From: a virus
Virus genome (UHGV): UHGV-0029174
DNA length: 37,642 nucleotides
Reading direction: 5' to 3' (one strand)
Positions 33,994 through 34,036 of the stretch are shown here, one piece after another (the stretch's first letter is position 1; every line of letters begins with the position of its first letter). The notes under the pieces are model-generated. The model saw nothing but the letters and a program-made list of their open reading frames with translations. It searched no databases and had not been told where the DNA came from. The translations under genes and the position numbers were made by a program.

Positions 33994-34036
33994 GCGATCA
34001 CAACACAAAATGTATATTTATGTGATCGCAATCACG
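33994..34036. promoter_or_regulatory. operator-like palindrome GCGATCACA-N18-TGTGATCGC with adjacent CRP-like TGTGATCGCAATCACG; candidate minus-strand promoter (TTAACA-N17-TAAATA)
   Basis: Perfect 9-bp inverted arms; shares TGTGATCGC and ATGTATATT with the 5511..5580 promoter region. Confidence 0.4.

Follow-up and report, generated by a model that had tools for sequence, protein, structure and literature searches.

CRP-type boxes and predicted intercistronic hairpins in an mEp021-like temperate phage of Escherichia coli

Class I promoters activated by the cyclic AMP receptor protein (CRP) carry a CRP box centred at about −61.5 or −71.5, and the positions from which CRP activates also include −41.5. 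Here we present an analysis of the virus genome UHGV-0029174, a stretch of 37,642 nucleotides referred to below as the window, in which a palindromic element near 34 kb and the promoter region of an antisense gene cassette near 5.5 kb each hold a 16-bp sequence of the CRP type. An earlier, sequence-only reading had proposed that the two sites share operator-like palindromes through which a single regulator, host CRP or a phage factor, coordinates an early promoter and an accessory cassette. Its observation is confirmed and its interpretation partly supported. Judged by sequence, both 16-mers are most likely cAMP-CRP-type binding sites belonging to a family of six boxes, five strong and one weak, and by its pattern of conservation the 34 kb palindrome looks more like an RNA hairpin on the − strand than like an operator. 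In the account we favour, the cassette box is a CRP activator site and the 34 kb palindrome is an RNA stem laid over a weakened CRP module, with no operator shared between the two; taken as a whole, we give this account an even chance. The finding is a further case of known kinds, namely class I CRP sites and intercistronic mRNA hairpins.

The boxes resemble those of class I promoters of the lac P1 type in sequence, each being a 16-bp TGTGA-N6-TCACA box that scores like genuine sites recovered by chromatin immunoprecipitation sequencing (ChIP-seq); in placement, the box centre lying 25.5–27.5 bp (or 35.5 bp) upstream of the start of an imperfect −35 hexamer; and in constraint, the half-sites being conserved and the spacer free. 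Unlike the described promoters, they sit in a phage, both in antisense accessory cassettes of the tail operon and inside the early operon, they are known from sequence, and the 34 kb copy has a degenerate −10 hexamer. As with the intercistronic hairpins of polycistronic phage and bacterial operons that occlude a ribosome-binding site or stabilise upstream mRNA, two stable hairpins are predicted at 34 kb in the stretch that separates a stop codon from the following Shine-Dalgarno sequence, some bases of which belong to the second hairpin; the fold is strand-specific and tolerant of G-U pairs. Unlike the known examples, these hairpins belong to no Rfam family, the first reuses half a CRP box and a −35-like hexamer, and their function is one that we infer.

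The window comes from an mEp021-like (mEpimmI) temperate siphophage of E. coli, with 84–92% DNA identity to the group and the same gene order. Among GenBank phages, megablast matched both regions to the mEp021 group only (mEp021, mEp010, mEp013, mEp044, mEp515, mEp554 and MagusPhagus), in reversed orientation, and the early rightward operon of the mEp021 annotation (N-like gp17, erf, ssb, gp25, gp26, ipe, dam, NinG, Q) is the − strand of the window. The tail genes also lie on the − strand, broken up by short + strand (antisense) cassettes. The 34 kb site falls within the 99-bp gap from the gp25-like to the gp26-like gene, and the cassette site between tail gene L (4793–5497, − strand) and antisense cassette 1. 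The 34 kb element is present in 15 of 5426 complete E. coli genomes, where the annotation gives flanking hypothetical proteins only.

For this phage group, Negrete-Mendez et al. (2025, PMC11893012) described a CI-like repressor, three nut sites and terminators. They report that the repressor has no cleavage site and that UV fails to induce lysogens, which makes an antirepressor cassette under the control of a host signal of interest; their paper mentions no CRP site, nor the gp25–gp26 gap. The 34 kb element lies in the same early operon, and its paralogue at 30.7 kb stands directly upstream of nutR2 and has a palindrome that is the predicted terminator TERM_4, but the 34 kb element differs from the nut sites and terminators in having no boxA, boxB or U tract. 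A second parallel is offered by the LexA-controlled antirepressor cassettes of the Gifsy prophages of Salmonella, as outlined by Lemire et al. (2011, PMC3121763). In both cases a separately transcribed antirepressor-like gene, lying outside the immunity region, would answer to a host global regulator instead of the phage repressor, but the putative regulator here is CRP-cAMP, an activator that reports carbon status, whereas that of Gifsy is LexA, a repressor that reports DNA damage. Our own observations are of matrix scores, enrichment, geometry, conservation, paralogy and strand-specific folding.

CRP-type boxes and their geometry

We scored the window with a symmetrised 16-bp CRP matrix made from 107 ChIP-seq CRP sites (Table 1 of Haycocks et al. 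2015, PMC4287617). The five best scores belong, in descending order, to the boxes at 26.8, 34, 30.7, 5.5 and 10.5 kb (coordinates and scores of all features are in Table 1 below); these five reach 14 bits or more, a level at which 0.27 boxes are expected, and all of them are intergenic. The first four outscore 87–92% of the ChIP-seq sites, the 34 kb box standing above 91% of them and the cassette box above 87%. The sequence-only reading had named matrix scoring as a check and a low score as evidence against it; the scores are high, and its claim that both 16-mers fit the CRP pattern holds. A sixth, weaker intergenic box lies ahead of cassette 2. The looser pattern TGTGA-N6-TCACR with at most one mismatch occurs 15 times in the window against 3.6 ± 2.4 expected, a count reached by none of 100 shuffles, and the exact string TGTGATCGC occurs in just the three places that had been named.

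On the same strand as the downstream genes, each box precedes a −35-like hexamer and, 16–17 nt further on, a −10-like hexamer. Measured from the box centre, the −35 starts 25.5 bp away in four of these modules (10.5, 26.8, 30.7 and 34 kb), 27.5 bp away in P5.5 and 35.5 bp away in P7.2. Transcription is predicted to start near 5586, 7245 and 10591 on the + strand and near 26739, 30714 and 33969 on the − strand. Relative to the starts, all of them predicted and the last with a poor −10, the box centres lie at −62.5 (cassette 1), −70.5, −60.5, −60.5, −59.5 and −59.5 (34 kb). Placement near −60 to −62 or −70 would, on these predicted starts, be that of class I CRP promoters. That one regulator presides over several promoters gains strength from the six intergenic boxes, each at class I distance from a promoter-like module; the palindrome is most likely not an operator shared with the cassette. 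A generic promoter scan detected P5.5 and found no sigma-70 promoter at P34.0, and the candidate −10 of P34.0 is not conserved, so that the description of the 34 kb site as an early promoter is not clearly sustained.

The constraint on the cassette-1 box is of the kind expected of a protein-binding site. Relatives were drawn from IMG/VR and metagenomes. In 34 unique orthologue sequences the box at 5516–5531 always scores 15.2–18.8 bits with TGTGA...TCAC unchanged, and its central bases vary (TCGCTG, TCGCCA, TCTGCG, TCTAAA and others), the entropy being 0.00 in the GTGA/TCAC cores and 0.87 bits in the central 4 nt. Neither strand of the region gives a significant RNA fold, and with no RNA structure in competition the likeliest source of the constraint is a symmetric DNA-binding protein of CRP specificity. 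On this evidence the cassette box is probably a working class I CRP activator site. CRP-cAMP bound there would activate the promoter TTGATC-17-TATATT and drive the antisense cassette, including its antirepressor-like third gene, which encodes an 82-aa KilAC-domain protein (PF03374, E 7e-7) with a putative antirepressor role.

The same boxes might instead be read, and the promoters coordinated, by a dimeric regulator that the phage itself encodes. The boxes are confined to phage regulatory regions and highly conserved there, and the pattern shows that a symmetric dimer is at work without showing which. Even so, we think a phage regulator very unlikely: as matches to the E. coli CRP matrix the boxes rank with the top 10% of real sites, and their spacing to the −35 is that of CRP class I promoters. 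No Crp/Fnr-type protein is named in the mEp021 annotation (record 1–47,530), where the annotated DNA-binding proteins are gp02 and gp14 (both helix-turn-helix) and gp15 (repressor), and no Crp/Fnr-type Pfam domain was found in the 20 small window proteins scanned, 17 of which gave no Pfam match of any kind.

The gp25–gp26 element as RNA and as DNA

The 34 kb palindrome had been described as a perfect 9-bp inverted repeat; the repeat is there, but its length is in fact 10 bp, TGCGATCACA (33993–34002) facing TGTGATCGCA (34021–34030) across a loop of 18. Read directly, the strings quoted for this site, GCGATCACA (33994–34002), ATGTATATT (34010–34018), TGTGATCGC (34021–34029) and TGTGATCGCAATCACG (34021–34036), are all in place, as are those quoted for the cassette, TGTGATCGCTGTCACG (5516–5531), GATCGC (5553–5558) and ATGTATATT (5571–5579). 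Perfect inverted repeats of at least 9 bp with loops of at most 30 gave 8 matches at four loci, against 4.9 ± 2.8 in simulated sequence. Since this count is near the simulated one, the palindrome alone is within chance; it is the CRP-type 16-mers and their conservation that exceed chance. Nor is the repeat a palindrome common to the two sites, since the 9- or 10-bp arms with their N18 spacing are not shared with the cassette.

Folding of the 34 kb region depends on the strand. On the − strand, which is that of the early operon, the repeat forms hairpin 1 at −16.3 kcal/mol (z −3.2), with the promoter-proximal CRP half-box and spacer as its left arm. A second hairpin, hairpin 2, lies between it and gp26; its folding energy is −15.7 kcal/mol for the − strand (z −2.9) but −3.7 for the + strand (z +0.7), and for the whole region the values are −33 kcal/mol (z −3.9) and −18.6 (z −0.9). 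Across 43 relatives, 97.8% of the alignment cells in the stems (98.2% in hairpin 2) pair on the − strand against 82.0% on the + strand, and one-sided variants that fit only the − strand, through G-U pairs, fill 88 cells, against 13 that fit only the + strand, nearly all singletons. RNAalifold predicts both hairpins from the relatives, and the hypervariable columns fall in predicted loops and the linker. In the relatives L010 and L011 both arms of the hairpin 1 stem changed together, a compensatory A-U to G-C replacement; otherwise the stem is retained through G-U-compatible changes, and in L164 three G-U pairs keep 9 of 9 pairs with the CRP score down to 7.8 bits. A search of the whole window against Rfam gave nothing at gathering score, and at E ≤ 10 the 34 kb region gave two weak matches far below threshold (MicA and AgvB).

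These data bear on whether the repeat is itself a DNA operator, bound by a phage tetramer or by two dimers 28 bp apart that would shut the CRP box and the −35. Its perfection and general conservation would suit such a site, as would the symmetric change of arms in L010 and L011, and another repeat with the same 18-nt spacing, of different sequence, brackets the 10.5 kb −35. We nevertheless find an operator very unlikely. Centre to centre, 28 bp separate the arms, which is neither one nor two helical turns, the only other arm copy in the window is part of the cassette box, and none was seen in the two intergenic stretches of the mEp021 immunity region that were inspected. Changes in the arms mostly affect one side and can be absorbed by G-U pairs on the − strand alone, a pattern that binding of a protein to DNA would not account for, and hairpin 2 is no palindrome at all.

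Considered as DNA, the 34 kb site is a promoter module with an unusual pattern of constraint. Its entropy is 0.23 in the core and 0.53 in the centre, so that the core is less and the spacer more constrained than at the other boxes, and in about one third of the orthologues the score drops to about 11–12 bits through core changes (GTAA, GTGG, TTACA, TCATA, TCGCA). Among 46 unique orthologues the −10 candidates are TAAACT in 15, TAAGCC in 13 and TGAACT in 7, the window included, with others making up the remainder. Of these, TAAACT could plausibly serve as a −10, but the key A at position 2 is absent from TGAACT, as is the T at position 6 from TAAGCC. A gapless, box-anchored comparison of P34.0 with P30.7 gave 32 identical positions out of 52 downstream of the box, against a null of 13.1 ± 3.2 in which even 28 was reached by none of 20,000 random pairs, and the common stretch includes TATCC(A/G)TTTTGTA(T/A)ACT around the −10. 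By this paralogy the 34 kb palindrome does not stand alone: the site is a duplicate of a CRP-promoter module and faces gp26.

Could this module be all there is? The site would then be a working class I CRP promoter for gp26, a small moron-like unit, and the repeat a by-product of a TGTGA-like −35 adjoining a CRP half-site, with no role in RNA. In keeping with this, the box reaches 16.9 bits, the site has exactly the geometry of the 30.7, 26.8 and 10.5 kb modules, and P30.7 is its paralogue; the TAAACT hexamer occurs in mEp021 and 14 other unique relatives, which mostly keep strong boxes, the TAAGCC group often having 11–12 bits; and relatives with a recombinant downstream gene keep the box, TTGTCC and TAAACT and not the right arm. 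We still regard this reading as unlikely. The window −10 is without the A at position 2, the T at position 6 is missing in at least 13 relatives, the promoter scan was negative, the box core varies here and is invariant at other sites with the spacer unusually conserved, and the strand-specific fold and wobble pattern would be left unexplained.

The remaining strings that had been offered as shared elements do not behave as such. GATCGC sits in the hypervariable spacer at the cassette. ATGTATATT is the −10 region of the cassette; its 34 kb copy is placed between box and −35-like hexamer on the strand opposite to gp26, the last three bases of that copy vary among relatives, and two occurrences in the window are unremarkable, being reached by 11 of 100 shuffles. 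Its presence would find a use if a + strand promoter (ACAAAACGG-N-CATGCG-16-TATATT, 33981–34018) made an antisense RNA against gp25, with the CRP box just past the start as a repressor site. The upstream ACAAAAYGG element of the family and a TG-TATATT −10 are indeed found on the + strand, the spacing CAAAACGG-N20-ATGTATATT is cassette-like and found at both loci, and TATATT is kept in most relatives. The −35 slot is a poor match and hypervariable, however, the T at position 6 of the −10 is lost in several relatives besides the variation of its last three bases, the promoter scan was negative and there is no conserved downstream product, and such a promoter seems to us highly improbable. Coincidence, that is similarity without function, would be content with the doubled ATGTATATT and a single 9-bp repeat, each within chance; it is barely credible given five intergenic boxes of at least 14 bits, cores invariant over dozens of relatives beside hypervariable bases, and fold z-scores significant on one strand.

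Other candidate functions for the 34 kb element were considered and rejected. Dam/SeqA control through GATC does not hold, one or other GATC site being lost in many relatives (GATT, GGTC, AATT, GAAC, GACC). A scan of 33940–34040 for an intrinsic terminator was negative on both strands, hairpin 1 being followed by AUGUCCG and hairpin 2 by GGAAAAC. Neither the boxA-like GCTCTTTAA nor a small A-rich-loop boxB of an N-type nut site occurs in 33940–34040, and the published nut positions are elsewhere. A CI/Cro-type operator was set aside on the 28-bp separation of the arms and the lack of a second arm at the cassette.

In the account we favour, with an RNA stem over a weakened CRP module, the 34 kb box would belong to a duplicate of the module preceding nutR2, facing gp26 on the − strand and probably still able to bind CRP. 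Because the −10 has drifted to TGAACT, promoter activity in this phage is doubtful. The sequence would instead be kept so that the half-box and spacer (TGCGATCACA) can pair with the −35-like region (TGTGATCGCA). In early mRNA reading through the gap, this pairing would make hairpin 1, and hairpin 2 would follow and occlude the gp26 Shine-Dalgarno sequence. If the module does fire, as may happen in mEp021 with its TAAACT, transcripts might start inside hairpin 2 and leave the ribosome-binding site free, which is speculation. CRP binding, promoter activity and control of translation or stability by the hairpins are all things that we infer from sequence.

Several points weigh against this account. 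The compared sequences are closely related, at about 88% identity; species-representative genomes scanned with a gp25 alignment and a degenerate hairpin-2 pattern yielded no more distant relatives for covariation, and a metagenome scan added close relatives only. A formal covariation test on the 43 relatives found one double-change pair and was not significant against a shuffle control, so that the RNA reading rests on strand asymmetry and thermodynamics, and the asymmetry is only 12 against 9 when variant types are counted. The box itself keeps a score of at least 11 bits in all but one of the 46 unique orthologues. Three recombinants with a different downstream gene (L037, L088 and L119) keep a strong box, TTGTCC and TAAACT and have lost the right arm and with it hairpin 1; in at least that lineage the DNA module matters and may be primary, and hairpin 1 is dispensable. 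The conservation of the 30.7 kb box is not due uniquely to CRP, because that box is also the apex of a terminator-like hairpin, and all of the promoters are predictions.

Neighbouring cassettes and modules

Table 1. Features of the window discussed in the text, in order of position. For promoter modules the −35-like hexamer, spacer length (nt) and −10-like hexamer are given.
Feature	Position	Strand	Description
CRP-type box TGTGATCGCTGTCACG	5516–5531	+	16.1 bits; cassette-1 promoter
Module P5.5, predicted sigma-70 promoter of antisense cassette 1	5551–5579	+	TTGATC, 17, TATATT; promoter scan; both hexamers kept in relatives
18-bp palindrome TACAATATGTATATTGTA	5565–5582		overlaps cassette-1 −10; contains ATGTATATT
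Cassette-1 genes	5626–5829 (GTG start), 5798–6148, 6158–6406	+	third is ANT/KilAC antirepressor-like
Weak CRP-type box TGAGAAATTCATCACA	7167–7182	+	10.5 bits; cassette 2 (ParE-like toxin)
Module P7.2	7210–7238	+	TTCACA, 17, TATATA
CRP-type box TGTGATCTAGATCTCT	10523–10538	+	14.2 bits; cassette 3
Module P10.5	10556–10584	+	TTCACT, 17, TATAAA
Module P26.8	26746–26774	−	TTGTTT, 17, TATATA
CRP-type box (TGTGACTTGTATCACA on − strand)	26792–26807	−	17.2 bits
nutR2-like boxA/boxB	about 30674–30705		downstream of P30.7
Module P30.7	30721–30748	−	TTGTTT, 16, TATACT
CRP-type box	30766–30781	−	16.8 bits; upstream of P30.7 and nutR2-like boxA/boxB
gp26-like gene	33722–33940	−	72 aa, function unknown, phrog_28996; downstream of 34 kb element
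Hairpin 2	33951–33990	−	about 14 bp; 3′ arm takes in first bases of gp26 Shine-Dalgarno (GGAGG, 33949–33953)
−10-like hexamer of P34.0	33976–33981	−	TGAACT (TAAACT in mEp021); weak, not conserved; spacer 16
Hairpin 1	33993–34030	−	10-bp repeat plus inner 4–5 bp helix in 18-nt loop
−35-like hexamer of P34.0	33998–34003	−	TTGTGA; overlaps right arm of inverted repeat; start 25.5 bp from box centre
CRP-type box TGTGATCGCAATCACG (CGTGATTGCGATCACA on − strand)	34021–34036		16.9 bits, second best in window
gp25-like gene	34040–34660	−	206 aa, function unknown, phrog_1515; upstream of 34 kb element

At 30.7 kb the box scores 16.8–20.5 bits in all 36 unique orthologues, with an entropy of 0.00 in the core and 1.18 in the centre, and the −35, the −10 and the downstream nutR2-like boxA/boxB are kept among relatives. 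On the − strand the box forms the apex of a 16-bp terminator-like hairpin followed by UUUCGUCUUG, which coincides with the predicted terminator TERM_4 (t4) of the mEp021 record (20087–20120); the frequent T/C change at position 1 of the box would give a C-A mismatch in the terminator-like stem. A promoter-like TTGTTT-16-TATACT followed by boxA/boxB just after the TERM_4 palindrome suggests that nutR2 has a promoter of its own.

The module at 26.8 kb is mosaic, homology among the relatives that have it starting exactly at the box, and box, promoter and downstream gene appear to travel as a single unit (26792–26850). The 10.5 kb box is also found in mEp021 and L171, with altered spacers; a search for relatives anchored on the cassette-3 cargo gene found one locus only. 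In 39 relatives the cassette-2 box, TGAGA-N6-TCACA, largely keeps its half-sites and has a hypervariable spacer. Cassette 2 (7281–7709, + strand) holds a 51-aa open reading frame (7281–7436) followed by a ParE-like toxin-domain protein (7443–7709, PF24732), and together these might form a toxin-antitoxin pair controlled from the weak CRP-type box.

In cassette 1, the palindrome that overlaps the −10 looks like an operator for a cassette repressor. It is nearly invariant in 34 relatives, about half of which have ...ATATTTTA, breaking one arm position. A LexA box at this palindrome was rejected by eye, the sequence reading CAAT...ATTG and not CTGT...ACAG. The first gene of the cassette most likely starts at GTG 5626 (relatives have ATG 6–7 nt past GGAGG) and probably not at ATG 5596.

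A further motif, (T)ACAAAATGG with its complement CCATTTTGT(A), recurs across the promoter modules. At 10.5 kb (10543–10582) the pair flanks the −35 as an 11-bp inverted repeat whose loop is 18 nt long; at 26.8 kb (26752–26785) it forms an 11-bp imperfect repeat around the −35, and at 30.7 kb (30726–30734 with 30790–30798) a 10-bp repeat bracketing both CRP box and −35. Motifs of the ACAAAATGG type also occur at 5603–5611 and 7200–7208, and in the mEp021 record (L003) at about 11918–11932, just upstream of the −35 of the mEp021 early promoter. Such a motif could be a half-site for a phage regulator, an UP-like element or an RNA stem.

Outside the window, the mEp021 record has two more CRP-type boxes. 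The first (11126–11141, 14.6 bits) precedes by about 26 bp an in-frame upstream ATG (11167), a likely start of the repressor gene gp15, and the second (12164–12179, 15.5 bits) is inside gp16, upstream of gp17. In the window, an unannotated frame of 30 codons (33627–33719, − strand) encodes a very hydrophobic, cysteine-rich peptide (MDDTLFYMCCCWGFIALCLFIRWFIEYHMR) and fills the gap between gp26 and gp27.

A possible link to host carbon status

A more ambitious reading, which we would put forward only as a long shot, makes cAMP-CRP the physiological switch of the phage group. Carbon starvation would turn on the cassettes, namely the antirepressor-like one in the tail region and the toxin-like and other accessory ones, together with the internal promoter feeding nutR2 and the Q region, and so open an SOS-independent induction or late-early route. 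The gp25–gp26 element would be a dual device, acting as DNA through a CRP promoter whose transcripts start inside hairpin 2 and so leave the ribosome-binding site accessible, and as read-through RNA by hiding that site.

That a CRP palindrome can double as an RNA stem, as the coincidence of TERM_4 with one of the boxes illustrates, means that intergenic palindromes of phages need testing at the level of both DNA and RNA. If CRP does bind these boxes, a common family of gut coliphages would tie several of its units to the carbon-starvation signal of the host: accessory cassettes of antirepressor-like, toxin-like or other content, the internal promoter just ahead of a nut site, and perhaps gp26. 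Such a link would also supply a hypothesis, open to experiment, of how lysogens are regulated when UV has no effect on them.

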